From the NCBI GenBank assembly GCA_964584075.1, contig CAZOYV010000004.1, forward strand, positions 1,131 to 65,130: a stretch of DNA of 64,000 nucleotides, read 5' to 3'. A model generated the notes under the pieces. The model had not been told where the DNA came from, ran no database searches, and was given only the letters and a program-made list of their open reading frames with translations. Each line of letters begins with the position of its first letter. Position 1 is the stretch's first letter. The DNA is from an uncultured Rickettsiales bacterium. Its GTDB lineage: Bacteria > Myxococcota_A > UBA796 > UBA9615 > CAYRNR01. Positions 6,432-33,670 of the stretch are shown here, in pieces. The translations under genes and the position numbers were made by a program.

Positions 6432-7604
6432 TCAGTACGCCATCCGCGCCAGCACCCCGCCGCCACGCACGGCGTAGACCAGCCGCACGTCGGGGTCGAC
6501 GGTGATGTCGGTCTGGGGGCCGCCGACGTCCACCGCCGAGGCCAGCCCCGAGGCCACGTCGACCACGACCGCGCTGCGGTCGGTCTGCAGCGCGACGAAC
6601 AGGTAGCCGGCCACCGGATCGATCGCGAGCCCGACCGGCGCGTCGGGCAGCACGATCGTCTCGTGCTCCCCACCGGCGGGGTCGAGGGCGACCACGCTGT
6701 GGGACTCCTGGCACGCGACGTACAGCCGGCCGGTGATCGGGTCCTGGACCATCTCGACGGGGCCGCTCTCGACCAGCAGCGGCTCGGGGTCGCCGCCGTC
6801 GAACGGCAGCCGGTGCACGGTGTCGAGGTGGCGCTGCAGCACGAAGATCGACCCGTCGCCCTCGTCGACCATCACCTGGCCCTCCACCGGGCCCCCGGGG
6901 AAGGTCCACGACAGGATCTCGCCGGCCGAGCCGTAGATCCGCAGCCGGCTGGTGTGCTCGTCCGGGGCGCTGAGCAGCATCGCCGTGCGCTGGTGCGCGG
7001 CGTAGGTCAGGTCCACCGGGATCTCGCCCTCGATCGGCTGGGGACAGATCAGGTTGGTCGTCTCGCCGATCCGCAGGCACTGGAAGTCGATCCCCCACGG
7101 GGTGCGATCGGCGAGCAGCACCTGGCCGGCCTCCTCGCTGGCGAACATCAGCCGCCGGGGCAGCCCGTCGGCCTCCTCGGGGCCGACCAGCCCCGGGTCG
7201 GCGCTCAGCACGTGGTCCGGCTCGCCGCCGACGTGGACCATCACCGGGACGCCGTCGTAGTCCGGCAGCCGGACCATCACCGCGCCCCCGCGCGGCAGGG
7301 GCGTCAGCCCCTCGGGGGGATCGCCGCGCTCGCCGTCGGGCCGCACGTGGGCGTACTGCACCAGGTGGGCGGCGAGGCCGTCGACCACCGCCAGCGAGTC
7401 CAGCTCGTCGCCGGCGACGTAGACCACGTGGGTGGCCGGATCGACCGCCACCATCGAGGCCCCGATCGGCTCGTGCTCGCCGTCGTTGAGCGCGATCGGG
7501 ACGACGTGGAACGCGCCGGCGTCGAGCAGCATCTCGCGGTCGCTGAGGCTGGAGCAGCCCGCCGCGGCGAGCGCCACCAGCGCGATCCACGGCCCGGGCC
7601 TCAT
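6432..7604 (-). CDS. lipoprotein with YVTN-type beta-propeller repeats
   Basis: Signal peptide plus lipobox-like LAAAGCSS. Repeated motifs such as HVVYVAG, RLYVAC and YLFVAL. The start ATG overlaps the upstream stop (ATGA). Confidence 0.65.
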   Translation of the reverse strand: MRPGPWIALVALAAAGCSSLSDREMLLDAGAFHVVPIALNDGEHEPIGASMVAVDPATHVVYVAGDELDSLAVVDGLAAHLVQYAHVRPDGERGDPPEGLTPLPRGGAVMVRLPDYDGVPVMVHVGGEPDHVLSADPGLVGPEEADGLPRRLMFASEEAGQVLLADRTPWGIDFQCLRIGETTNLICPQPIEGEIPVDLTYAAHQRTAMLLSAPDEHTSRLRIYGSAGEILSWTFPGGPVEGQVMVDEGDGSIFVLQRHLDTVHRLPFDGGDPEPLLVESGPVEMVQDPITGRLYVACQESHSVVALDPAGGEHETIVLPDAPVGLAIDPVAGYLFVALQTDRSAVVVDVASGLASAVDVGGPQTDITVDPDVRLVYAVRGGGVLARMAY

Positions 7605-9325
7605 CGCACGCTCCCGAGCAGCCGGAGCTGCGCGCCGATCAGCACGCCGAGGCGCGCCTCGGGGACGCCGTACATGTCCTCCACCGGCGGCGCGTAGAGG
7701 TCGACGAACCCGGCGGCCTGGACGCCGAACCGGCGCGGCCCCCACAGGTCGATCCCGGTGACCAGCCCCGGTGCGGGCATCAGCGCGCTCTGGGGTGCCT
7801 CGGCGACCCCGCCGTCGTCGCGGCGGACCCACACGGCCATCATCTGCAGCCGGGGCCCGATCCAGAAGCTGGCGCGGCGCACGTCGCCGCAGGCCTGGAC
7901 GCCGACCCCGACGCGCACGGCGTCCGCGCGCACCGACAGGCCCTGCGCGGCCTGATAGGCCCCCTGGCCGTGGGCGTAGCCGGCGTCGACGGTGAACCGC
8001 ACGGTCCGCGCCCGGCCGACGAAGCGGTGCCGGTAGGACACGTCCGGGCCCAGCGAGAACGCCGGGTAGTTCTGGGAGAACGGGCCGGCGACCCCGAAGC
8101 CCGCGACGCCGGCGGCGAGGCTGTCCCGCCCCTCGGCGCGGTGCTCGTCGACCAGCGCGTCGACCGACAGGCTCTGCCCCGGCGAGACGCGCACGGTGCG
8201 CTGGACCAGCATCTCCCCGTCGTCGCCGGGGGCGACGACCTCGACGTGGTGCAGCCCGGGCTCCACCGGGATCGCCCGCGGCAGCGCGCCGCGGGGCTGG
8301 CCGTCGACGCGGATGCTGCACTGGGCCAGCAGGCGGCCGTAGCTGGTCAGCAGCCCCTTCTCGGCGGCCCACAGCGAGTCGTCCCCGCCGGAGAGGTAGA
8401 TGTCCTCGCGCCCCACCTCGCGGAACAGCGCGCGCGGGACCTGGGCCCCGCCGGTGTGGGCGATGGTGTGGTCGCGGGCGTACTCGTGGGCCTCGGTCAC
8501 CGAGATCACGCCGTCGCGGTCCAGGTCGGCCTCGTCCATCCGGTCGCCGAGCGCCTGCATCAGGTAGTAGGTGAACACGCCGTGCCCCAGCTCGGGGTCC
8601 TCCAGCGCCGGCTGGTGGAACGCCGCGGCGAACAGGTGCGCCTCGGCCTCTCCGACGCGGGTCAGGATCCGCGGGTCGACCGGGGAGCGGCGGCGGGCCA
8701 GGCGCTCCAGCGTCTCGGCGTCGAGCACGCTCTTGGCCTCGCCGTTGTGGCAGCTGTCGAGGACCATCACCTTGCGGCGGCAGGGCAGCCGCTGGAGGAT
8801 CCGCTGCAGGGTGTCCACCGCGATGGCCGTCGACTGGGGGTGCCGCTGGTCCGCGTCCCGCGGGCAGACGTACAGCGTCGAACCGCCCGACGAATCGGTG
8901 GACAGCGTGCCGTGGCCCGAGAAGTACAGCAGCACCGTGTCGTTGCGCTGCAGCGGGGCGATCAGGTCGTCCAGCGCCGCGAGGATCTCGACCCGGGTGG
9001 TCTGCTCCGGCCCGGTCAGGACCACGACGTCGTCGAACCCCCCGCGCAGCGGGTCGCGCAGCAGCGCGGCGAGCTCCTCGGCGTCGTCGCCGGCGAAGCG
9101 CAGCGCGGGGAACGCGTCGTCGTCGTAGCGGTCGACCCCGACGAGCAGGGCGACCCGGCGGGGCTGGTAGGCCTCGTCGACGAGGGAGGGATCGGCCGGG
9201 GCGTCGGCCAGCCCCCGCGGCTGCACGTCGGCCCGTGCCCCCGACGGCCAGGCCGTCGCGAGCAGCAGACCCGCGCACGCGATCAGCGCGAGGCGTCCTT
9301 GACGGTGGCCTCGACCTCGACCCAA
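7601..9325 (-). CDS. secreted caspase-family (peptidase C14) protein with C-terminal extension
   Basis: Signal peptide LALIACAGLLLATAWPSGARA. Caspase catalytic dyad contexts YFSGHG (His) and VMVLDSCHNG (Cys). The start is TTG at 9325 and overlaps the anti-sigma gene end by about 43 nt. Confidence 0.7.
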   Translation of the reverse strand: MGRGRGHRQGRLALIACAGLLLATAWPSGARADVQPRGLADAPADPSLVDEAYQPRRVALLVGVDRYDDDAFPALRFAGDDAEELAALLRDPLRGGFDDVVVLTGPEQTTRVEILAALDDLIAPLQRNDTVLLYFSGHGTLSTDSSGGSTLYVCPRDADQRHPQSTAIAVDTLQRILQRLPCRRKVMVLDSCHNGEAKSVLDAETLERLARRRSPVDPRILTRVGEAEAHLFAAAFHQPALEDPELGHGVFTYYLMQALGDRMDEADLDRDGVISVTEAHEYARDHTIAHTGGAQVPRALFREVGREDIYLSGGDDSLWAAEKGLLTSYGRLLAQCSIRVDGQPRGALPRAIPVEPGLHHVEVVAPGDDGEMLVQRTVRVSPGQSLSVDALVDEHRAEGRDSLAAGVAGFGVAGPFSQNYPAFSLGPDVSYRHRFVGRARTVRFTVDAGYAHGQGAYQAAQGLSVRADAVRVGVGVQACGDVRRASFWIGPRLQMMAVWVRRDDGGVAEAPQSALMPAPGLVTGIDLWGPRRFGVQAAGFVDLYAPPVEDMYGVPEARLGVLIGAQLRLLGSVR

Positions 9326-9984
9326 GCCACCTCCGCGCCCTCGCCCAGGAGGGTGATGTGGGGGAGCGTCTCTCCCCCGGGTTTCCAGTCCTCTGGCGGA
9401 GCCGCCTGGGAGTACACCGCGGCGAAACGGTGAGGGCCCGCCTCTGTGACATAGAATACCTGCAAGCGGCCATCCCGGCGTAGATCATTCGCGCCGGCGA
9501 CCCCGGGCAGCGTCGTCAGCGGCTCCCACGCCTCGCCCGGAGGCTCCACCAGGAAGGTCAGCATCCCCGCCCGATCGAGCTCGGCGCGCAGGTACACCGC
9601 GTCCCCGACGCGCAGGCGATCGTCGGCCTCGAGGCGCGCGGGCGCCTCGGCGTCGGGGTGCTGCACCAGGAAGTCGAGGTGCACCCCCGCGGGGGCCTCG
9701 TCCCCCGTGCCGCGGGGGGTCAGCCCCGCCGCGCTCTCCGCGGGCGGCTGCACGAACCACATCACGGCCACGGCGGCGGCCGCGGCCCCCAGCGCGGAGA
9801 CCGCCGCCACCAGCGCCGTGCGGCGCCACGACGGCCCGCGGCGTTCGGCGCGCAGGCGACCCTGGATGTCCTGGAGCACCGCGCGGTCCAGGTCTCGCGG
9901 CACCGGCTCCCGCGGGAGCAGCGCCGCCAGCGCCTCGACCGGGGGCTCGGGCCCCTCGATGATCACGTCGTCTCGCTGGCTCAT
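9283..9984 (-). CDS. membrane-spanning anti-sigma factor (cognate to upstream ECF sigma)
   Basis: ATGA overlap with the sigma factor stop. Cytoplasmic N-domain, a single TM (ALVAAVSALGAAAAAVAVMWFV) and a periplasmic domain. Position is immediately downstream of the ECF sigma gene. Confidence 0.6.
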   Translation of the reverse strand: MSQRDDVIIEGPEPPVEALAALLPREPVPRDLDRAVLQDIQGRLRAERRGPSWRRTALVAAVSALGAAAAAVAVMWFVQPPAESAAGLTPRGTGDEAPAGVHLDFLVQHPDAEAPARLEADDRLRVGDAVYLRAELDRAGMLTFLVEPPGEAWEPLTTLPGVAGANDLRRDGRLQVFYVTEAGPHRFAAVYSQAAPPEDWKPGGETLPHITLLGEGAEVAWVEVEATVKDASR

Positions 9985-10568
9985 CCCGTCATCTCCTCCG
10001 CAACCGGATCGGCCGAGAGGATCTCTCGGAGCTGTCGGCGCCCGCGGAAGATCGTCATCTTGGCGGCGGCTGCGGTGCAGTCCATCGTCTCGGAGACCTC
10101 CCGCGCGGTGTAGCCGTACAGATCGTGCAGCAACACCGCGGCCCGCCGACGCTCGGGGAGCTTCTCCAGCGCCGCGCGGAGCACCCGCTGCTTCTCTTCC
10201 CGGTAGGCCTCGTGCTCGGGCCCCGGCCGGTGCTCGGAGGGATCGGGCTGCCGGTCGTCGGGGCGCGAGCGGTTCTCGATGTCCCGCCACCCCTTGGACC
10301 GGCTGAGATCGACGCACAGCCGGTAGACGATGGTGTACAGGAACGTCGAGAACTTGGCCGTCGGTTGGTACCGGTGGCGGGACTTGTGCAGCCGCACGAA
10401 AGCCTCGTGGTACACCTCCTCCACCAGATCCTCCCGCGGGACGAAGCGGCGGATGAAGAAGTACACCCGCTCCTTGTGACGCACGTAGAGCTGCTCGAAG
10501 GCACGCTCGTCCCCCTCGCAGTACGCGAGCATGAGGTGTTCGTCCGTCACCATTCCCTCGTCGTCCAT
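9981..10568 (-). CDS. RNA polymerase ECF-type sigma-70 factor
   Basis: Region 2 (LMLAYCEGDERAFEQLYVRHKERVYFFIRRFV) and region 4 (LPERRRAAVLLHDLYGYTAREVSETMDCT...AKMTIFRGRRQLREIL). Start ambiguous between 10553, 10568 and 10601. Confidence 0.85.
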   Translation of the reverse strand: MDDEGMVTDEHLMLAYCEGDERAFEQLYVRHKERVYFFIRRFVPREDLVEEVYHEAFVRLHKSRHRYQPTAKFSTFLYTIVYRLCVDLSRSKGWRDIENRSRPDDRQPDPSEHRPGPEHEAYREEKQRVLRAALEKLPERRRAAVLLHDLYGYTAREVSETMDCTAAAAKMTIFRGRRQLREILSADPVAEEMTG

Positions 10569-10629
10569 CTCAACGATCCCGCGCCGAGAACGGTTCGCCA
10601 CCGTCTCGCCGTCACCAGTCCTTGACGGG

Positions 10630-19937: not shown

Positions 19938-22325
19938 TCAGCGCCGCTTGCCGCCCCCGCGGCGGGGCGGGGGCGGGAGCTCCTCGAGGACCTCGCCCTC
20001 GGGGATCGGCGTGGCCGCCTCCCGGTCCTCCCCGGCGGCCGGCTCGTCCCGGTCGGCGGCGACCTCGCCGGGGTCGATGCCGTCCGCGGGCTCCTCGGTC
20101 TGCTTGAACTTGCCCCGCGGGGTGTCGGCCTCGACCGGTACCCTGAGCGGCGTCGCGACCGGCGCCGGCGTCGGTGGCGGGGGCTCCTCCTCGGTGACCG
20201 TGTCGCCGAGGGAGGGGATCTTCTCCTCGACGAAGCGCGGCAGCTCCGGACGATCCTGGAACGAGCGGAACGGCGTGATCTCGTACTCGGGCTCCCACAT
20301 CCGCGGCGCACCGGGGCGCCGCGAGAGCAGCCCGCTGCGGGCGCCGGCCCGGTCCCGCGCCTCGCGGCTGCCGACCCGGCCGCGGTGGTCCTCGAAGCCG
20401 TGGTCGATCACCACGCCGGGGCTGGGCGTCGGGGCCTCGGCCAGTGGCCCGGCCCCTCCCTCGGGGGGCGGCCCCGCGCCCCCGTCGTCCGCGGTCGCGA
20501 CCGGCGTGCCGCGGTCCGGCGGCGCGCCGTCGGCCGCGGCCGGCGTACCACCCCCGTCACCCCCGCGGGTCCCGGCGGACCCGTCTGGCTCGACGGCGTC
20601 CTCCGCCACACCATCCGGTCCGGCGGCACCGTCCGGACCGTCGCCGCCGTCCGGCCCGTCGCCCCCGAGCAGCCCGCCGATCCCGTCCGTCAGCGCCACC
20701 CGCGGCCCGGGGGAGGCCAGCACCAGCGCCGCTCCGCCGGCGACCAGGAGCAGCGCCGCGGCCCACAGCCCGGCGCTGCTGCGCCGCCGGGGGAACGGCT
20801 CGTCGTCGCGCTCGGCGAGGGGCACGATCACCGGCTCGCGGGAGGGCGTCGCGCCCGCGTCCACCGGGGCCGCGGTCGTCGGGGCCGCCTCCGGGGTCGA
20901 CGCGAGCGGCTCCGGAGCGGCCGCCGGCGCGGTGCCCGCGGCGCCGCCGAGGACCTCCACCGCGGCGATGCTCATCATCTCCTCGGGCACCGCCGTCGGG
21001 TTGGCGACGCCCTCGTCCTCGCCGCGCGGCCACGGCACCTCCGGCGCGCCCCGGTCCGGGGGGGCGATCGGAGCCGCGTCCGGCAGCGCCTGCGCGGCCG
21101 CGGGGTCGTGGGGCGTCGGATCGACGATCGACCGCGGGTCCGCCATCTCCAGCGTGTCCGGGGCCGGTGGCTCCTCGCCGGTGGGATCGCTGAGCCGCAG
21201 CGGTGCCGGGCGCTCGTCGTCCGGCGGCAGCAGCAGCTCGTCCTTCTTGCCGGGCCGCTCGAACGCCGCTGCCGGCGCCAGCGCGGGCAGCGGCGGCAGG
21301 GGCTGGCCCTTCTTGGGCGCCGAGTCCCCGGCCTCGATCAGCTCCTCGCAGTACGCGGCCACGGTCTCCGCGTCGGGGCGCGCCTCGGGCGAGCGCGTGA
21401 TCAGCTGATCGACCAGCTCGTCCAGCAGCGGCAGGTGGGGCTCGTACCCCTCCCCGGCGCTGAGCGGGACCCGCTCGTAGCGCGTCGCGCCCGAGCGCAG
21501 CGCCTGGAAGTCGACCGCGCCGCGCGCCACCAGATCGCGCACCGGCTGGCCGCCGGCGAGGGTGTGCATCAGCACGCCGAGCCCGAAGATGTCGGTGGGC
21601 GGGCCGACCGTCGCCTCGCCGCGGAGCTGCTCCGGGGAGGCGAACTCGGGCGTCCCGACGAACCCGCCCTGGATCGTGACGTGGCGGCGGGGGATGAACT
21701 CGGGCTGGGCGCGCGCGATGCCCCAGTCGGCGACCCGGATCCGGATCGGGAACTCCTCGGGGTTGCGCACCAGGATGTTGGACGGCTTCAGATCGCGGTG
21801 GGTCACGCCGATGGCGTGCGCCGCGGCCAGCGCGCGGGCGATCTGGGTTCCGACCTGCAGCACCGTGCGCGACGCCAGCCGCCCGTGCTTGCGCAGCAGC
21901 TCGTCGAGCCCCCCGCCCGGGACGAACTCCGTGGCCAGGAAGTAGGGCTCCTCGCCGTCGACCTTGAGCTCGCGGAACGGCACGACGTTGGGGTGCTCGA
22001 GGCGGCGCAGCACCTCGCCCTCGAGCCGCAGCCGGTCCTGGAGCATCCCCTGGCCGCGGTCGAGGTGCAGGATCTTGATCGCCACGTCGCGGTGCTCGGG
22101 ATCGTCGGCGGCCAGATCGATGGCGCGGTAGGTGACCCCGGCCCCGCCGGCGCCCAGCCGCTGGCGGATGCGGAAGCGCCCGTCGATGTTCTCGCCGGCC
22201 TCGTAGAAGAACGGCCAGCCGCTGGTGGGCCGGGACTTGCCGCACGACAGCCGCGGACAGAGATCCGCGTCCGACTCGATGTAGCGCAGGCAGTAGCTGC
22301 AGTAGTGCTGTCGCGGTCCGGGCAC
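19938..22325 (-). CDS. Ser/Thr protein kinase with N-terminal zinc-ribbon, Pro-rich linker, one TM and acidic C-terminal region
   Basis: Hanks kinase motifs GAGGAGVTYRA, VAIK, HRDLKPSNIL, DWG, SPE. CxxC...CxxC at the N-terminus. GTG start with GGAGG 12 nt upstream. Convergent with the PBP-like gene (3-nt gap). Confidence 0.85.
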   Translation of the reverse strand: MPGPRQHYCSYCLRYIESDADLCPRLSCGKSRPTSGWPFFYEAGENIDGRFRIRQRLGAGGAGVTYRAIDLAADDPEHRDVAIKILHLDRGQGMLQDRLRLEGEVLRRLEHPNVVPFRELKVDGEEPYFLATEFVPGGGLDELLRKHGRLASRTVLQVGTQIARALAAAHAIGVTHRDLKPSNILVRNPEEFPIRIRVADWGIARAQPEFIPRRHVTIQGGFVGTPEFASPEQLRGEATVGPPTDIFGLGVLMHTLAGGQPVRDLVARGAVDFQALRSGATRYERVPLSAGEGYEPHLPLLDELVDQLITRSPEARPDAETVAAYCEELIEAGDSAPKKGQPLPPLPALAPAAAFERPGKKDELLLPPDDERPAPLRLSDPTGEEPPAPDTLEMADPRSIVDPTPHDPAAAQALPDAAPIAPPDRGAPEVPWPRGEDEGVANPTAVPEEMMSIAAVEVLGGAAGTAPAAAPEPLASTPEAAPTTAAPVDAGATPSREPVIVPLAERDDEPFPRRRSSAGLWAAALLLVAGGAALVLASPGPRVALTDGIGGLLGGDGPDGGDGPDGAAGPDGVAEDAVEPDGSAGTRGGDGGGTPAAADGAPPDRGTPVATADDGGAGPPPEGGAGPLAEAPTPSPGVVIDHGFEDHRGRVGSREARDRAGARSGLLSRRPGAPRMWEPEYEITPFRSFQDRPELPRFVEEKIPSLGDTVTEEEPPPPTPAPVATPLRVPVEADTPRGKFKQTEEPADGIDPGEVAADRDEPAAGEDREAATPIPEGEVLEELPPPPRRGGGKRR

Positions 22326-23942: not shown

Positions 23943-25616
23943 TCACGGGCAGCTCGTCAGCTCCCCCGGCGTGCCGCGATCGACGTGGCCCTGCAGCGTG
24001 CAGCTCCAGCCGTCGGGCGGCGCCGCGCACCAGCGCGACGGGTCGTCGTTGCCGTCGGCGTCGACGGCGCCGGCGTCCAGTCCCAGCGACCAGCCCTTGT
24101 CCAGGTCCCAGCCGGTCCAGTCGAACCACACCTCGTCCACGGTGACCCAGCCCTCCGCCGCGGGGCACACCAGCGCGCAGCGGTCGGGCTCCCCGTTGTT
24201 GAACGTCACCGAGCCGCCGTACTGGCCGTGGACCTCGATCGCGCAGCTCGGATCGAACGAGCCGCGGGACAGCACCGCGATCCCGCCGGGGAGCAGCGGG
24301 CCCTCCGCCGTCAGCGCCGCGGCGTGTCCGTCGTCCTCGATCCGGCAGCCGTCCAGCGACAGCTCGCGCGGGGAGACGTTGACCACCTCGAGCCACTCGG
24401 GGAACAGCGTCCCCTGGGACGGCGCGATCATCAGCTCGCTGATCACCAGCTCGCCGGCGGCCGGCGCGTCGGCGGCCGGCTCGCCGGCGCCGCACGGGGG
24501 GTTGGGCCACCCCGGGGTCCCGAACTCCACCACCTCGCCGTCCTCGAAGAACGGCTCCTCGGCCAGGCACCACCCCCCGTCGCCGCCCGGGTCCCGGGAC
24601 AGCGCCCGGCCCCGCTCGCCGCCGCTGGCGGCCCAGTCGTAGGCGACGCGCTCGATCTCCTGATCCCCGCACGAGAGCCACAGCTCCTCGGCGACGTCGT
24701 TGTTGAACGTCAGGCTCGAGTAGGCGTAGTCGGCCACCACGCCCCCCGGGGTCAGCTCGGGCGAGGACGCCGCGAGCAGCAGCGTCGCGCCGGGATCGAG
24801 CACCGTGCCCCCGCGCGCCGGATCGAGGACGTGCTCGTGGGGCGCGCCGTCCCCGCCCTCGGCCAGCGTGCAGCCCGCGAGATCGAGCACCACGCCGGCC
24901 TCGCTGGTCAGCTCCAGCCACTCGCGTCCGACCCACGGCGCGACCATGAGCTCGGTGATCCGCAGGTCGCCCGGGCGGGGCACCTCGCCGGCGGCCTCGG
25001 GGCAGGCGTTGGCCTCCCCCGGCGTCCCGTACTGGGGTTCCTCGCCGAACGGCGCGTCGATCCCGGCGACGCACCAGCGCGCGGGATCGTCGTCCAGCGC
25101 GCCACCGAGCGGCTGCGCCAGCATCCACGAGTGGCCCCGCGGGGCCGGGGCGAGCGCGCCGATCACGACGTCGTCGACGAGCTGCAGCGCGCCGTCCTCC
25201 CCGGGGCAGTGGACGCGGAGCACCTCGTCCGGGTCGTCCTCGGCCAGCACCAGCGCGTCCTCGCCGAGCTCCACGAGCGCCGGCAGCGAGAGCCCCAGCG
25301 CCGCCTCGGCGACGACGAGCCGCTCCCCGGGCTGCAGCCAGGTCTCGGGGGGCAGGTAGGCCACGTGCCCGGCGGTCCCGCCGTCGGACAGGGTGCAGCC
25401 GGCGAGCGCCAGCCGGCCCTCGCCGAGGTGGGCCAGCTCGACCCACTCCGGCTGGCCCGGGAGCGGATCGGCCATCACCTCGACGACGGCGACCTCGCCG
25501 GGGCCCGGCGGCCGGGCCGGGGCGTCGACCTGGACGCCGGAGCAGGCCGGGGCCCGCAGCAGCAGGAACGCGAGGGCGAGGCCCACGCAGTAGGCGGAGA
25601 ACAGGAGCTTGCGCAT
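23943..25616 (-). CDS. lipoprotein with three lamin-tail-domain (LTD) repeats
   Basis: Signal peptide MRKLLFSAYCVGLALAFLLLRAPACSG. Three repeats of the LTD pattern (ELM/VMA-P..G..EW(V/L)E(L/V)...L.L.GC.L.D). Confidence 0.7.
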   Translation of the reverse strand: MRKLLFSAYCVGLALAFLLLRAPACSGVQVDAPARPPGPGEVAVVEVMADPLPGQPEWVELAHLGEGRLALAGCTLSDGGTAGHVAYLPPETWLQPGERLVVAEAALGLSLPALVELGEDALVLAEDDPDEVLRVHCPGEDGALQLVDDVVIGALAPAPRGHSWMLAQPLGGALDDDPARWCVAGIDAPFGEEPQYGTPGEANACPEAAGEVPRPGDLRITELMVAPWVGREWLELTSEAGVVLDLAGCTLAEGGDGAPHEHVLDPARGGTVLDPGATLLLAASSPELTPGGVVADYAYSSLTFNNDVAEELWLSCGDQEIERVAYDWAASGGERGRALSRDPGGDGGWCLAEEPFFEDGEVVEFGTPGWPNPPCGAGEPAADAPAAGELVISELMIAPSQGTLFPEWLEVVNVSPRELSLDGCRIEDDGHAAALTAEGPLLPGGIAVLSRGSFDPSCAIEVHGQYGGSVTFNNGEPDRCALVCPAAEGWVTVDEVWFDWTGWDLDKGWSLGLDAGAVDADGNDDPSRWCAAPPDGWSCTLQGHVDRGTPGELTSCP

Positions 25617-25763: not shown

Positions 25764-26264
25764 ATGACGAACCGCGACGACCAGCGCTGGATGCTCGAGG
25801 CCCTCGCCGAGGCGCGGGCGGCCGGGGCCGACGGCGAGGTCCCGGTGGGCGCCGTGCTCGTGGCCGACGGCCGCGTGGTGTCCCGGGGCCGCAACCGCCG
25901 CGAGCGCACGGGGGATCCGACGGCGCACGCCGAGATGGAGGCCCTGCGCGGGGCGGTGGACCCGGCCTCGCCGGGGCGCTGGCGCCAGCTGGGGGCGACG
26001 ATGTACGTCACCCTCGAGCCGTGCGCGATGTGCATGGGCGCGCTGATCCTGGCGCGCGTGGAGCGGCTGGTCTACGGCTGCCCGGACCCCAAGGGGGGCG
26101 CCGCCGAGACGCTGTACCGGCTCGGCGACGACGAGCGCCTGAACCACCGCGTCGCGGTCACGGGAGGAGTCCTGGCGGAGGAGTCGGCGGACCTGCTACG
26201 CTCCTTCTTCAAGCGACTCCGGGCGCGCCGCGGCGGCGGCGGACCCGGGGCCCAGGGCAGCTGA
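25764..26264 (+). CDS. tadA: tRNA-specific adenosine deaminase
   Basis: CDA zinc motifs HAEMEAL and TLEPCAMC. Size and layout typical of TadA. Confidence 0.9.
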   Translation: MTNRDDQRWMLEALAEARAAGADGEVPVGAVLVADGRVVSRGRNRRERTGDPTAHAEMEALRGAVDPASPGRWRQLGATMYVTLEPCAMCMGALILARVERLVYGCPDPKGGAAETLYRLGDDERLNHRVAVTGGVLAEESADLLRSFFKRLRARRGGGGPGAQGS

Positions 26265-26273
26265 AGCAAGCGC

Positions 26274-26363
<90 letters not shown>

Positions 26364-26413
26364 TTGACAATTCGCGATCGCGAGGGGACAGTCCGCAAGG
26401 CGTCCGCGCCCCT

Positions 26414-26501
<88 letters not shown>

Positions 26502-26522
26502 CGATCCCCCCCCGCGGGTAGG

Positions 26523-26628
26523 CGGGATGGCTGGGTCCCGGGAGACCGGAGCCGGTGAACTCCGCCAGGTCCGGAAGGAAGCAACGGTAGCTGGTCCTCC
26601 GGGGCTTCCGGTCCAACCCAGCCATCCC
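26523..26628 (+). ncRNA. ffs: signal recognition particle RNA (4.5S / small SRP RNA)
   Basis: Long hairpin whose ends pair (GGATGGCTGGGT...ACCCAGCCATCC). It contains the conserved SRP domain IV motif CCAGGTCCGGAAGGAAGCA. Sits immediately upstream of dnaX, as in many bacteria. Confidence 0.7.
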
Positions 26629-26648
26629 TCGTACCCACGGGTGCTCCG

Positions 26649-28508
<1,860 letters not shown>

Positions 28509-31202
28509 TCAGTAGACCACCCACCGCGCCCAGCGCGACACGGGCTCGCCCGCGGCGATCCGTGCCTGCTGGGCCTTGCGCAGCGCCCCCCCCACGCCGA
28601 GCCGCTCCGCGCCCTCGAGGATCTCGGCGGGCAGCGCATCCTGTTCGTCCCCTGGCGGCGCGTCCCACAGCGGCACCAGCACCGCGCCGGCGCCGGCACC
28701 GCGCAGCGCCACCGCGACCGCGGGGGGGGCCGGGGAGCTCCACACCACGACCTGCGCCCCGGCGGCCCACTCCGCGAGCGCCCCGGTCTCGAGCCAGGCC
28801 TCGCCCCCGTTGGCCGCGGCGACCCCGATCCGGGCGCGCCCCGCGGTCCCGGCGTGGCGCTCCGTCGGCAGCGCCACCAGCACCACGTCGGCCCCCGCGA
28901 GGACGTCTCGCAGGGCCTCGGCGCGGGCGTCCCCGCCGTCTCGCACGACGGGGTGGCGGACCCTCCGCCCGAGCATCCCGAGCAGGGCCGCGCCGTCCCC
29001 CGGGCCCCGCGCCACGGCGGCCGCGCGGCGGAGCCTGGCGCGGGCCCCGAGGCGGTGCGGCGGCGCCCCCCCGGGCGCCAGCTGGACGACGGCGACGCGC
29101 TCCACCAGGTACCCACCCTCGCCCCGCAGCGCCGCCCAGGGGAGCGCGTCGAGCGGGGGAGCCGCCGAGATCGCCACGACCGAGGCTCCGTCCGGGCCGC
29201 CCAGCCGGTCCTCGAAGGGCCCGACGAGCTCCCGGTACAGGGTCCGGGCAGCCTCGTCCGCGTCCCGCGCCCCGCCCTCCGGGGGTGACGCGAGCACGCC
29301 GGCCAGCCGGTCGAGCTCACCGCGCTCGAGGGGGATCGCGCGGAACGCGACCGCGCCGTCCTCGACCCACCACGCCAGCGTCTGATCCTCGTGGCTGGCC
29401 ACGAACAGCCCCGCTGCCCCCCCGGGGACCGCGTCCCGCGCCGGGGTCGGGTCCGCGACGCCGTGCCGCCGCGCCCGCTCCCGCCAGTGGGCCTCGAGGG
29501 CCTCCTCGGGCTCGCCGGTCGCGGCCTTCCACGCGACCCACGCCTCGTGCGGAGCGCTGCGCTCGTCGGCCAGCGGCAGCGGTGGCTCCAGCACCTCCCG
29601 CGGCGCCAGGGTCTCCACCCCCTCGAGCGCGGCGCGCAGGTGGGCCTCGACGCCGGCGTCGTCCCCGAGCCGCCGGGCGACGCGGGCCAGCCCGAGGTGC
29701 AGGGCCCAGCCCGGACAGCCGTCCGCCGCGGCCTCGCCCAGGGCCGCCTCCAGCGCCGCCTCCGCGGCGTCGGCCTCGCCCGCCTCCAGCGATAGCCCGG
29801 CGCGGGCCGCGGTGGCCGCCGCCCAGGCCTCGCAGTGCCCGGCCTCGCGGGCCAGCGCCGCGACCCGGTCCAGCTCGGCGCGGGCCTCGTCGGTCCGGCC
29901 CACGTGCCGCGCCACGGCGGCGAGCACCGCCACCGCGAGCAGCGCGTCCTGCTCGGAACGATAGGCGGTGATCGCCCCCGGCGCGGCGAACGGGTCCCGG
30001 TTGTCCGCCAGCGAGCGCTGGGCCTGGCGCCGCGCCTCGTCCCAGCGCCCCGCGCGCAGCAGCGCCCCGGCCCAGCGCGCCCGCGCCTCGACCTCGCCAG
30101 CGGTGTCCCCGGCCTCGGCGTAGCGCGCCACGGCCTGCTCGAAGCCCTTGCGCGCCGCCTCGAGCTCGCCGCGGTGCGAGGCCAGGGCCGCCCGCCGGGA
30201 CCGCAGGTAGCCCTCGTCCCCGGCGTCCCCGCGGTCCCGCGCCTCTCGCTCGGCCTCCTCGAACCAGCGGTCGGCCTCCGCGACCCAGCCCTCCATCGCC
30301 GCGATCTCCCCCAGCCCGGTGCGCGCCGCCACCGAGCGCGGCCCCCCGACGCACGCCACGAACGCCTCGCGCGCCCGCTCGATCCGTCCCGCCTGCAGCG
30401 CCGCGAAGCCGGCCCCGAAGCGGTAGTCCGCCTCGACGCCGGAGGCCCCCGTGACGGCGGCGATCCGCGCCGCGTCGTCCATCGCCCGCCACGCCCCGTC
30501 CGCGTCCCCCGCGGCGAGCCGGTCCGCCCCCAGCGCGTAGATCGCCTCGGCGAGCTGGTCGAGGCCGGCGTAGCCGCTCAGCCCGGCCAGCCGCTCGTCG
30601 AGGTACGCCAGGGCCGCGCGGACCCCGTCGTCGCCGTCGTCGACCGAGCGGCTGAGCGACAGCGAGGTGTGCCCCGCCAGGCCGATCAGCGCCACGTCCC
30701 CCGAGGCGACGGTGGCCAGGACCGCGGCGTCGGCCCAGGCCAGCGCCTCGCCGAGCCGGCCGGCCTCGGCGTGGGCCTCGCACAGCCGCACGCGCACGAC
30801 CACCGGCGCCGCCCGGTCGGCTCCGGCGTCCGCCAGCGGCAGCGCCTCCTCGAGGGATGCCACCGCGTCCTCGCTGCGATCCCGCTGCTGGAACCAGGCC
30901 GCGAGCTCGAGCAGCACCGCCCGCTGCAGGGCGGTGTCCTCCGCTGCCCGGGCTGCCTCGATCGCGTCCCGGTACGCTCGCTCGGCCTCCGCGGCGGCGC
31001 CCTCCGCCGCCAGGCGGCGGGCCGCGGCGAGGCGTGCCGAGGGGTCCTCCGCGGCGCCGTCCGGTGGGCCGTCCCCGGGGGCCGCAGGCGGCTCCTCCGG
31101 CGGGCCCAGCGGGGCCGCCGAGGCCGACGGCTCGGGGCCCGCGAGGGCCCACGCCAGCGTCGCGATCGCGAGGGCAGCCCTCGAGCGGAATCCCAGCGGC
31201 AT
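28509..31202 (-). CDS. secreted TPR-repeat protein with C-terminal CHAT-like domain
   Basis: ATG 31202 with GAGAGGGGG RBS. Signal peptide MPLGFRSRAALAIATLAWALAGPEPSASA. Long Ala/Glu-rich TPR-like helical repeats. The C-terminus has CHAT-like blocks (PLDALPWAAL; ADVVLVALPTERHAG; VVVWSSPAPP; ...WARWVVY). Confidence 0.6.
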   Translation of the reverse strand: MPLGFRSRAALAIATLAWALAGPEPSASAAPLGPPEEPPAAPGDGPPDGAAEDPSARLAAARRLAAEGAAAEAERAYRDAIEAARAAEDTALQRAVLLELAAWFQQRDRSEDAVASLEEALPLADAGADRAAPVVVRVRLCEAHAEAGRLGEALAWADAAVLATVASGDVALIGLAGHTSLSLSRSVDDGDDGVRAALAYLDERLAGLSGYAGLDQLAEAIYALGADRLAAGDADGAWRAMDDAARIAAVTGASGVEADYRFGAGFAALQAGRIERAREAFVACVGGPRSVAARTGLGEIAAMEGWVAEADRWFEEAEREARDRGDAGDEGYLRSRRAALASHRGELEAARKGFEQAVARYAEAGDTAGEVEARARWAGALLRAGRWDEARRQAQRSLADNRDPFAAPGAITAYRSEQDALLAVAVLAAVARHVGRTDEARAELDRVAALAREAGHCEAWAAATAARAGLSLEAGEADAAEAALEAALGEAAADGCPGWALHLGLARVARRLGDDAGVEAHLRAALEGVETLAPREVLEPPLPLADERSAPHEAWVAWKAATGEPEEALEAHWRERARRHGVADPTPARDAVPGGAAGLFVASHEDQTLAWWVEDGAVAFRAIPLERGELDRLAGVLASPPEGGARDADEAARTLYRELVGPFEDRLGGPDGASVVAISAAPPLDALPWAALRGEGGYLVERVAVVQLAPGGAPPHRLGARARLRRAAAVARGPGDGAALLGMLGRRVRHPVVRDGGDARAEALRDVLAGADVVLVALPTERHAGTAGRARIGVAAANGGEAWLETGALAEWAAGAQVVVWSSPAPPAVAVALRGAGAGAVLVPLWDAPPGDEQDALPAEILEGAERLGVGGALRKAQQARIAAGEPVSRWARWVVY

Positions 31203-31502
31203 CGAACCCCCTCTCGGCGGACCTCCCCGGAGCGCCATGGTTGGCGCGATGATACCATCCGCAGATCCCGCTGTGACGGGCGTTTCCAAGGGCTCCCGGT
31301 CACGTTGACACTGGCAAAAACAGCATGGTAGCGTGACTCGATTCCGGCGTGTTCGCTGGACACCGAAAGGGGACTCTGACTCCTCGTTTCCCAGGTCCCC
31401 ACGGATGGGGGTTCGCCCGGGGAACTGGATAGAGCGGGATCCAGAGACCAGACCCACTTCAACCCAACTCCGCCCGACTCGATATTGCGAAGGAGAGTTG
31501 CC

Positions 31503-32048
31503 ATGGCCGACGCTACTCAGAGTGACCAGCGCCTCGTCGAGATCAACAACGAGCTCAACAAGATCCTCGAGGACCGCATCACCTTCTTGACCACGACGGT
31601 CAAGACCACCGAACGCCTGACCCAGCAGATCGCGTCCAACGAGCTGGACATCAAGCGGAACACCGAGATGCAGGGCAAGCTCGAGGACGAGATGAAGGGC
31701 ATCTCCAAGGAGCTCGACGCGCTCACGGAGACCACCGAGAGCCTGTCCTCCGAGCGCGACGCCAAGCAGAAGGAGAAGTACGCCAAGGAGAAGGAGATCC
31801 AGCGGATCGAGTGGGAGATCTCCGACAAGACCAAGTCCATCGAGAAGGACGAGGAGCGGATCAAGGACCTCGAGAAGGAGCTCGACAAGCTCGAGCGCGA
31901 GAACAAGAAGCTCAAGAACCGGGTCAAGGTCCTCGAGGAGGGCGTCGCCCGGATGACCAAGGTCAAGCAGGAGTACATGAAGCAGATCCAGGGCCTGAAC
32001 CAGGAGATGAGCAGCCTGGCTGGCCCCGGCGACGACGCCGGGGAGTAG
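31503..32048 (+). CDS. Lys/Glu-rich coiled-coil protein
   Basis: AAGGAGAG RBS 5 nt before ATG 31503. Heptad-like KE-rich sequence throughout. Preceded by a ~200-nt leader. Confidence 0.6.
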   Translation: MADATQSDQRLVEINNELNKILEDRITFLTTTVKTTERLTQQIASNELDIKRNTEMQGKLEDEMKGISKELDALTETTESLSSERDAKQKEKYAKEKEIQRIEWEISDKTKSIEKDEERIKDLEKELDKLERENKKLKNRVKVLEEGVARMTKVKQEYMKQIQGLNQEMSSLAGPGDDAGE

Positions 32049-32134
32049 GGTCCCGCTCACCCCTCGTGGGGGAGGCGAGCGACCCCGTCCTTCAACCGGT
32101 CCGATCCGTCGGACACAACGAGCTGGGATGAGCC

Positions 32135-33670
32135 ATGGCCAAGGACAAGAAAGAACCCGCGGAGAACGCGGAGCAGGAGCAGGCCGAGGAGGCCGCCGAG
32201 CAGGGCGGTGAGGCCAAGCAGCCCGCGCCGGGCGGGCAGTACGACAGCAACAAGGCGATCAAGGCCTGCCACGGCATCCTCGCCGGCATCCAGTCGGCCA
32301 ACGAGGAGCTGAACGAGGCGATCGTGGGACGGTTCGGGTACGCCGCTCGTCAGCGCGTGCTCGCCGCCGGGCTGCAGGCCGCCTCCAAGAGCGTCGAGGT
32401 TCCCTGGGAGCTCCAGCGCCAGACGATCATCCGCGGTGGCGCGGTGGCGGCGGGTGGTGGTGGCGCCGCCGGCGGAGACGACGTCGTCCGCCGCGACGAG
32501 CTCGAGACGATGGTCGATCACAAGATCGGGATGGCCGTCGACCAGGCGTTCGGCAAGCTGCGCGGCCAATCGGGCGAGCTGCGCATGATGATCGACGAGG
32601 CGGTCAACTCGTCGGCCGGCAACCTCGAGAGCCGGCTGCTCAGCGTGATGCGCGAGAACCTGACGGACTCGCTGCGGACGCTGGAGTCCTCGCTCGAGGA
32701 TCGGATGCGGGACTACCTGTCGTCGCAGTCGATCGACGAGGAGGTCCGGGTCCGGGAGGCCCTCCAGGACGTGCGCAAGGCCGCCGAGGAGGGCATCAAG
32801 GCCGCGGGCGGGGACGACGCCCTGATGGAGGAGATCGAGGACGTCCGCGACGTCGAGATGGACGTGGCGGACTACGACGTCGGCGACATCGAGGAGGTCC
32901 AGGCGTCGATGGAGGGCCTCGACGAGGAGGACCTCGACGACGACGCGATCGACGAGGACTTCGACGAGGAGATCCTCGCGGACGAGGCCAGCCCCAGCGC
33001 GGAGCTCGAGGCGGTCCAGGCCGACGAGCCGGTCGTCTCCGCCGCCGAGGAGGAGTTGATCGAGGCCTCCGAGGAGGAGATCGAGGCCGCGGAGGAGGAG
33101 TCCGCCGGCGGGGGCGAGGACGTCGCCATCGACGACGACTCCCTCGCCGAGGCGATGGCGGCGGCGACCGCCGAGGACGAGTCGGACCCCGAGGCGATCA
33201 ACCGCTACCTCGAGCTGGCCAGCAAGCTCCGCGGCCGCAAGAACTTCCCGGCCGCGCAGGAGCTGTACCAGAAGGTGATCGAGATCGACGACACCAACTT
33301 CGAGGCGCGCATCGGCCTCGGCGCGGTGCACCTGCAGACCCCGGACTACGACGCCGCCGCCGAGGAGTTCGAGCTGGCGATGACGGTCGATCCCGACAGC
33401 CCGGCGGGCTACCTCGGGATGGGCGAGGTGCACTTCCTGCAGAAGGAGTACCCCAAGGCGATCAAGCAGTACACCCAGTGCCTCAAGCTCGACGACAACC
33501 TGGCGCAGGCGTACTGCAACCGAGGGCTGAGCTACTACTACCAGAAGAACCACAAGAAGGCGTTCCTCGATCTCCAGAAGGCCTACAAGCTCGACCCCGA
33601 GATCCCGAACATCAAGAAGTACCTGCAGATGGTCATGAAGCAGCTCAAGAAGCGCGAGGGGAAGAAGTAG
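32135..33670 (+). CDS. acidic protein with C-terminal TPR repeats
   Basis: TPR consensus in the last ~150 aa (AAQELYQKVIEIDDTNFEARIGLGAVHLQ...AIKQYTQCLKLDDNLAQAYCNRGLSYY). Confidence 0.6.
   Translation: MAKDKKEPAENAEQEQAEEAAEQGGEAKQPAPGGQYDSNKAIKACHGILAGIQSANEELNEAIVGRFGYAARQRVLAAGLQAASKSVEVPWELQRQTIIRGGAVAAGGGGAAGGDDVVRRDELETMVDHKIGMAVDQAFGKLRGQSGELRMMIDEAVNSSAGNLESRLLSVMRENLTDSLRTLESSLEDRMRDYLSSQSIDEEVRVREALQDVRKAAEEGIKAAGGDDALMEEIEDVRDVEMDVADYDVGDIEEVQASMEGLDEEDLDDDAIDEDFDEEILADEASPSAELEAVQADEPVVSAAEEELIEASEEEIEAAEEESAGGGEDVAIDDDSLAEAMAAATAEDESDPEAINRYLELASKLRGRKNFPAAQELYQKVIEIDDTNFEARIGLGAVHLQTPDYDAAAEEFELAMTVDPDSPAGYLGMGEVHFLQKEYPKAIKQYTQCLKLDDNLAQAYCNRGLSYYYQKNHKKAFLDLQKAYKLDPEIPNIKKYLQMVMKQLKKREGKK

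Follow-up and report, generated by a model that had tools for sequence, protein, structure and literature searches.

A putative envelope-targeted TPR-CHAT pseudo-protease encoded beside dnaX

Proteins combining tetratricopeptide repeats (TPR) with a CHAT domain have been studied as switchable proteases, the cases being Craspase, DdvA and separase. Csx29, the TPR-CHAT protein of the type III-E CRISPR Craspase (PDB 7Y8T, 8D9F, 8EEX), is a cytoplasmic, Cas7-11-bound protein that is proteolytically active through its His-Cys dyad and has an additional three-helix motif. DdvA of Myxococcus xanthus (PDB 8ROT/8RW5) is an anti-sigma factor that spans the membrane by a transmembrane helix, binds zinc in its N-terminal anti-sigma domain and has a cognate extracytoplasmic function (ECF) sigma factor; its periplasmic TPR-CHAT dimerises through TPR, scaffold and CHAT surfaces and retains the dyad His862/Cys907, His862 being located in the beta8-beta9 turn (PMC11506125). 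Caspase-fold proteins with a replaced His-Cys dyad, the pseudo-orthocaspases of cyanobacteria and other bacteria, are presumed to be non-proteolytic (PMC6426788). Here we describe a gene for an 897-aa protein in a 64-kb stretch of contig CAZOYV010000004.1 (the whole 64,000-nt stretch that was analysed is referred to as the window). With a probability of about 0.6, the protein is an envelope-targeted TPR-CHAT pseudo-protease, most likely acting as a non-catalytic binding or scaffold module.

As judged from profile comparisons and predicted structure, the C-terminal domain of the protein belongs to CHAT (caspase-fold clan CD), and the similarity is beyond chance. When the C-terminal 317 aa were searched alone, PF12770 matched above its cut-off of 24 with 29.6 bits (E 6e-7), the match covering just profile positions 2-86 of 289. 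The PF12770 score of the single orthologue, P0001, was 58.7 bits. A canonical-CHAT hidden Markov model (HMM) of 13 homologues gave 92.9 bits with the N-terminal part and 20.1 bits with the C-terminal 70 residues of the domain; in both family members it aligned the N-terminal (4-149) and C-terminal (269-339) parts and skipped the catalytic middle. The hhalign comparison of the two-member family with canonical CHAT homologues resulted in a probability of 99.96. The retained CHAT fold motifs were PLxxLPWxAL, YLVER, GAGAGAVLVPLWD, ALRKAQ and a C-terminal W-A-x-W. No Peptidase_C14 (p20) match was obtained from Pfam with the 897-aa protein or with the domain, which is of the CHAT type, and NCBIfam gave nothing for the domain.

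The AlphaFold model of the domain alone had a predicted local distance difference test score (pLDDT) of 88.2 and a predicted template modelling score (pTM) of 0.88, with 14 strands. In the Foldseek comparison of this model with PDB the best match was the Craspase TPR-CHAT/Csx29 (probability 1.00, E 2e-11, template modelling score ~0.7), followed by the periplasmic TPR-CHAT of DdvA (E 3e-10) and then by separases. With the full-length model, DdvA was ranked first at E 3e-14, before separases and the Craspase TPR-CHAT. No match was found when the domain sequence was searched directly against PDB.

According to the alignments, the catalytic dyad is lost from this CHAT-like domain. The catalytic positions were determined by MAFFT alignment of whole domains, by MAFFT L-INS-i, G-INS-i and E-INS-i alignments of the catalytic half, which took in segments of DdvA and Sb-TPR-CHAT, and by hhalign. 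In all of these, L-V-A-L-P replaced the canonical H-x-A-x-H, so that Pro779 occupied the His column. In the domain model Pro779 was placed in the predicted beta8-beta9 turn, matching the published location of DdvA His862. The initial annotation had taken the His of the RHAG block for the catalytic one; with Pro779 in the His column, this assignment to His783 was not retained. His residues of the domain were found only at domain positions 24, 136, 170 and 203.

The catalytic-Cys column was occupied by Pro824 or a gap in hhalign and in the three catalytic-half MAFFT alignments, which paired VVVW with LVVL and Ser822-Ser823 with the 'S-A' of LSAC. The loop after this column was 14-16 residues shorter than in canonical CHATs. 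A BLAST high-scoring segment pair with the catalytic segment of DdvA had the same register (VVVW/SSP) but was non-significant. The whole-domain MAFFT alignment set LSAC against 'EWAAG'; this register was rejected, as the three catalytic-half alignments, hhalign and the predicted strands agreed on VVVW = LVVL. There is no cysteine in the whole 317-aa domain, and therefore the catalytic Cys is not recoverable by any alignment, at this column or elsewhere. The initial annotation had read the Cys position as Ser. The missing Cys was confirmed by these data, but not the Ser as the residue of the column: as the alignments set Ser822 and Ser823 at -2/-1 of the Cys column, the two serines most likely stood next to the Cys that was lost and do not substitute for it. 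The pseudo-protease reading proposed at that time is supported by the absence of the dyad in both the window protein and P0001.

When 1.84 billion cluster representatives were scanned exhaustively with HMMER, 17 matches were obtained. Sixteen were ordinary CHATs, matched mainly over the first half of the domain with E 3e-8 or weaker, and P0001 was the sole relative across the whole domain (E 3e-33, 39% identity). The identity between P0001 and the 897-aa protein was 38-40% over ~360 aa. In word-indexed searches of a set of 5.8 billion proteins, for which the full-length protein, its C-terminal domain and a profile of the two sequences served as queries, nothing was found beyond P0001. Neither the protein nor the DnaX C-terminus, the latter used as a synteny anchor, led to a relative in scans of the genome collection, and in the metagenome scan only the P0001 contig was found again. 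DnaX and the protein, the latter with either of two starts, had no source contig in exact-sequence look-ups; a Myxococcota-like origin may be supposed from the 74% GC and the gene content.

P0001 is encoded on the 1.4-kb metagenome contig L001 (Ga0180429_10173664), where its gene converges on the dnaX 3' end, as in the window; the DnaX C-termini are 54.5% identical. Because of the same convergent place with dnaX together with the homology, P0001 is, at the level of sequence and gene order, the positional orthologue of the window gene. By tblastn, the homology on L001 was seen to continue, in a different reading frame, into the final TPR helices. The change of frame occurs at nt 131-140, inside a GCCGCCGCCCCGG run between the last TPR helices and the CHAT-like domain, and due to this change the public P0001 gene call starts at an internal GTG. 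Occurring in a C/G run of a short metagenome contig, the frame change may be an assembly error or may mark a pseudogene.

P0001 has Pro at both catalytic columns, with W-C-V-P in place of the window protein's W-S-S-P. The positions of Ser822 and Ser823 are occupied by Cys and Val, respectively, and that of His783 by Ser, and the catalytic half of P0001 contains no His. At the Ser822 column the Cys codon TGC of P0001 is one substitution away from the AGC of the window gene. The fold motifs and a few acidic or basic residues are conserved between the two family members, and no Ser, Cys, Thr or His is conserved in the catalytic core.

The N-terminus of the 897-aa protein reads MPLGFRSR-AALAIATLAWALA-GPEPSASA/AP, AALAIATLAWALA being a hydrophobic stretch. 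Its charge, hydrophobic core and AXA sites, ALA/G (after aa 21) and ASA/A (after aa 29), are as in a Sec signal peptide. Neither a lipobox Cys nor a twin-arginine motif is present in the N-terminal sequence, and it lacks both an anti-sigma domain and a zinc motif, aa 141 being the first Cys of the protein. Judged from these N-terminal features alone, the protein is probably exported. The full-length AlphaFold model (pLDDT 77, pTM 0.69; secondary structure determined by DSSP) had pLDDT values below 50 for aa 21-50, with predicted disorder at aa 21-53. In the helical-repeat region, TPR_12 matched aa 291-580 scanned alone with 32.9 bits (cut-off 30.1) and TPR_MalT with E 3.7e-6; the TPR matches of aa 54-300 were weaker. 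The full-length query gave only weak TPR matches and no CHAT match in Pfam, the weak TPR scores being probably due to the composition of the protein, 25% Ala. The exported-looking TPR and CHAT-like architecture proposed in the initial annotation was thus supported by the signal-peptide-like N-terminus, the TPR_12 and PF12770 scores and the AlphaFold and Foldseek results.

The open reading frame (ORF) of the gene is a genuine coding sequence. The GC content at codon positions 1, 2 and 3 was 0.87, 0.60 and 0.96, respectively, and steady in every 100-codon block, in a genome with a GC content of about 74% (72-80%). Where the frame extends beyond ATG 31202, up to 32060, the GC at position 3 (GC3) fell to only 0.58. 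The start at ATG 31202 was preferred over the in-frame ATG 31238 because of the position of the AGGGGG run; a start at ATG 31238 and a longer ORF reaching 32060 were dropped on the grounds of GC3 and the position of this run. Overlapping long ORFs in other frames (e.g. 26675..29971 (+) and 29317..31152 (-)) had the wrong codon-position GC pattern and were rejected as high-GC artefacts. The sigma-70-like promoter scan found 1 site compared with 0.0 expected in shuffles, which is a pattern match only. The translation contained the motifs quoted in the initial annotation, i.e. DALPWAAL, TERHAG, VVVWSSPAPP and, directly before the stop, SRWARWVVY, and the ORF and its coordinates were as given there. 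The features of the locus are presented in Table 1.

Table 1. Coordinates of the TPR-CHAT-like gene, its features and the adjoining dnaX in the window.
Feature	Coordinates	Strand	Basis
TPR + CHAT-like protein coding sequence, 897 aa	28509..31202	(-)	ATG 31202; stop TGA 28509-28511; translation, GC3
Sigma-70-like promoter match GTCACA / 17-nt spacer / TATCAT, TG-extended -10	31249..31277	(-)	Consensus scan
Shine-Dalgarno-like AGGGGG, 4 nt before ATG 31202	31207..31212	(-)	Read from sequence
Signal-peptide-like N-terminus, aa 1-29	31116..31202	(-)	Sequence; AlphaFold helix aa 6-20
Disordered linker rich in Pro/Ala/Glu/Asp, aa 30-53	31044..31115	(-)	AlphaFold pLDDT
Helical-repeat (TPR-like) region, aa 54-580, ~24 helices	29463..31043	(-)	DSSP of full-length model, Pfam
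CHAT-like (caspase-fold) domain, aa 597-897, 14 predicted beta strands	28512..29414	(-)	PF12770, canonical-CHAT HMM, hhalign, AlphaFold, Foldseek
Pro779 (CCG), putative catalytic-His column	28866..28868	(-)	MAFFT, hhalign, predicted strand order
His783 (CAC) of TERHAG	28854..28856	(-)	4 residues downstream of His column; Ser in orthologue P0001
Ser822-Ser823-Pro824 (AGC TCC CCG), after strand VVVW	28731..28739	(-)	hhalign, three-mode MAFFT
dnaX, convergent, stop abuts the gene's stop; synteny anchor common to orthologue	26649..28508	(+)	ORF + translation

The dnaX gene is the last member of a housekeeping cluster (25764-28508, (+)) consisting of tadA, tRNA-Ser (CGA), tRNA-Ser (GGA), signal recognition particle (SRP) RNA and dnaX, and it directly precedes the convergent TPR-CHAT-like gene instead of the usual ybaB/recR. 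Inside dnaX, a 27-nt tandem repeat (27982-28094, (+); 4.2 copies, 95% matching) encodes 9-aa units (..GRSGDPAE..) in the Pro/Glu-rich linker of DnaX. On the other side, two divergent genes (31485-33670, (+)) encode a coiled-coil protein of 187 aa, rich in Lys and Glu, and a protein of 511 aa with a long acidic region and C-terminal TPRs; the second-codon-position GC of both is only 0.30-0.36 despite the 74% GC of the genome.

The studied gene is not flanked by any gene for a sigma factor, an anti-sigma factor or defence. With the full protein only a TPR model of PADLOC-DB was matched, at E 0.049, and with the CHAT-like domain nothing. No Cas domain was found in the scanned window ORFs, and Rfam detected only the two tRNAs and the SRP RNA in the 64-kb window, with no CRISPR repeat. 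The link to conflict or signalling systems suggested in the initial annotation was not supported by the neighbours, which are dnaX, SRP RNA, tRNA-Ser, tadA, the coiled-coil protein and the TPR protein.

The only ECF sigma gene found in the window (9981-10601, (-); Sigma70_r2 + r4_2) is located 18 kb off and has its own partners. It belongs to an apparent three-gene operon (7601-10601, (-)) together with genes for a putative anti-sigma factor and an exported caspase protein. The former is a single-pass membrane protein (9283-9984, (-)) of anti-sigma-like topology, whose ATG overlaps the sigma stop. The latter is a Peptidase_C14 protein (7601-9325, (-)) with a signal peptide and intact YFSGHG and VLDSCHNG motifs; its score with the NCBIfam model 'caspase, EACC1-associated type' was 113.7 bits, under the cut-off of 140.

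Between 11017 and 22325, unusually long cell-wall genes are located beside a Ser/Thr kinase gene (19938-22325, (-)); a 716-aa ORF without a match in Pfam lies before them. The FtsW/RodA domain of the 862-aa protein is confined to aa 554-831, and the transpeptidase domain of the 1395-aa protein to aa 1228-1342. A probable lipoprotein (23943-25610, (-); N-terminus ...LLLRAPAC) contains three Lamin Tail Domain (LTD) repeats (PF00932, E 2e-23). Genes for Ser/Thr kinases, the LTD lipoprotein, ABC transporters and FtsW/penicillin-binding proteins are among the genes noted elsewhere in the window.

In architecture the window protein resembles DdvA, in which an extracytoplasmic helical/TPR solenoid is followed by a compact 14-strand CHAT, and the sizes are similar (991 aa in DdvA compared with 897 aa). 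The architecture and the best structural match of the full-length model agree with the TPR-CHAT module of DdvA, and the window protein would likewise be extracytoplasmic if its N-terminus acts as a signal peptide. Unlike DdvA, the window protein has a signal peptide-like N-terminus, no dyad, no adjacent sigma gene and neither a zinc-binding anti-sigma domain nor a transmembrane helix at the N-terminus, and there is no significant pairwise sequence similarity to the catalytic segment of DdvA (BLAST). Csx29 has the same TPR and CHAT architecture; the window protein differs from it by the absence of the dyad, the presence of the putative signal peptide, and the lack of any cas gene or CRISPR repeat among the features found in the window.

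The nearest sequence relatives after the orthologue were ordinary PF12770 TPR-CHATs (P0002, P0005, P0012), which share 30-39% identity with the window protein in the N-terminal part of the domain (110-150 residues) and several of which have long TPR N-terminal regions. The motifs PLxxLPFxAL, YLIER, GAGxVVASLW and WAAF are common to them and the window protein. However, the ordinary TPR-CHATs all carry HxAxH and LSAC, whereas in P0001 and the window protein both columns, as aligned, are occupied by Pro and the post-Cys loop is shortened. The pseudo-orthocaspases, which give the pseudo-protease reading a precedent, are comparable as bacterial caspase-fold pseudoenzymes with a replaced dyad (PMC6426788). 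They differ in having the Peptidase_C14 p20 domain instead of CHAT, a typical Tyr/Ser instead of Pro/Pro, and no TPR solenoid.

In the pseudo-protease reading, the Sec-type signal peptide and the disordered linker would take the protein into the periplasm or out of the cell. The CHAT fold and the motifs that determine it are kept and the active site is dismantled, with His replaced by Pro779 and Cys replaced by Pro824 or deleted. The dismantled dyad, the shortened loop and the lack of cysteine argue against any action as a His-Cys protease. A protein or peptide partner would instead be held by the solenoid of TPRs and the inactive CHAT cleft, similarly to the role proposed for the periplasmic TPR-CHAT sensor module of DdvA, and the protein would act freely, without a membrane anchor or an anti-sigma domain. 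The present data establish the coding status, the domain architecture, the fold assignment as a predicted structure, the loss of the dyad, which the orthologue shares, and the conserved place beside dnaX; export, ligand binding and any regulatory role are inferred.

Several points weigh against this interpretation. There is no partner, operon or phenotype from which a specific ligand could be named. As canonical CHATs made up most of the alignment fed to AlphaFold, the model is biased towards the CHAT fold, and the mapping of the catalytic residues rests on sequence and profile alignments with the secondary-structure order, not on model coordinates. The arguments from conservation are thin because the family has two members only. 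In addition, the frame change on L001 could mean that the family is decaying.

Such decay is the core of one alternative, in which the gene is a relic of a former TPR-CHAT protease gene that has lost its active site and is drifting without function, the two copies persisting beside dnaX by phylogenetic inertia. The extreme rarity of the family (one relative among the cluster representatives scanned), a catalytic core diverged past recognition by the HMM, the shift of reading frame within the orthologous gene and an alanine content that would be driven by mutation bias are all in line with it. However, GC3 and the GC at position 2 are uniform over all 897 codons, and the fold motifs have been conserved at an overall identity of 38-40%, compared with 54.5% for the variable DnaX tail of the same two genomes. 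Further points against decay are the high confidence of the predicted fold and the promoter-like and Shine-Dalgarno-like sequences before the gene, and the frame change, falling in a C/G run, may have arisen by misassembly. We therefore consider a functionless relic unlikely.

A comparably low probability was assigned to the protein being a soluble envelope sensor or regulator in a signalling or defence circuit, for example a free DdvA-like periplasmic module which would form heteromers with, and so modulate, a TPR-CHAT anti-sigma factor or an active caspase-like protease of the envelope, as a cFLIP-like decoy. The closest solved architecture, the periplasmic TPR-CHAT of DdvA, dimerises, and the window also encodes an ECF sigma factor, a putative anti-sigma factor and an exported caspase protein with an intact dyad. 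That operon is, however, separated by 18 kb and unrelated genes, and its caspase is of the C14 type and not CHAT. The conserved neighbour of the studied gene is the housekeeping dnaX and not a gene for a sigma factor, an anti-sigma factor or defence, and the N-terminus of the protein has neither an anti-sigma domain nor a zinc motif. A wider proposal is still less probable: that the window protein and P0001 represent a previously undescribed, nearly orphan clade of exported TPR-CHATs, with both catalytic residues replaced by Pro, beside dnaX in an undersampled high-GC lineage, and that they would serve as soluble non-catalytic regulators or decoys of envelope caspase-like proteases or TPR-CHAT anti-sigma factors, i.e. 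as a periplasmic counterpart of pseudo-caspases such as cFLIP.

The initial annotation had also allowed for a Ser-His variant, and a non-canonical hydrolase with Ser822/Ser823 and His783 as a replacement dyad on the caspase fold is very improbable: although the Ser-Ser pair follows the strand that normally bears the Cys, His783 is no more than 4 residues away from the His column and the Ser822 codon is a single substitution from the orthologue's Cys codon, none of the three residues is conserved, P0001 is devoid of His throughout its catalytic half, the serines are out of the Cys column and the loop after it is shortened. To our knowledge, there is no serine-nucleophile enzyme on a clan CD fold, which also weighs against such a hydrolase.

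The protein is most likely a rare, dyad-less and probably exported TPR-CHAT, and not a new kind of protease. It adds one uncommon pseudoenzyme lineage for which a functional context is lacking, and the finding is thus of use chiefly for annotation: the gene is not to be labelled as a protease or a defence gene. If the interpretation is true, the dyad-less exported TPR-CHAT would show that the scaffold can be kept for a non-proteolytic job in the envelope, and the protein could be used as a natural inactive comparator for ligand binding by TPR-CHAT modules.

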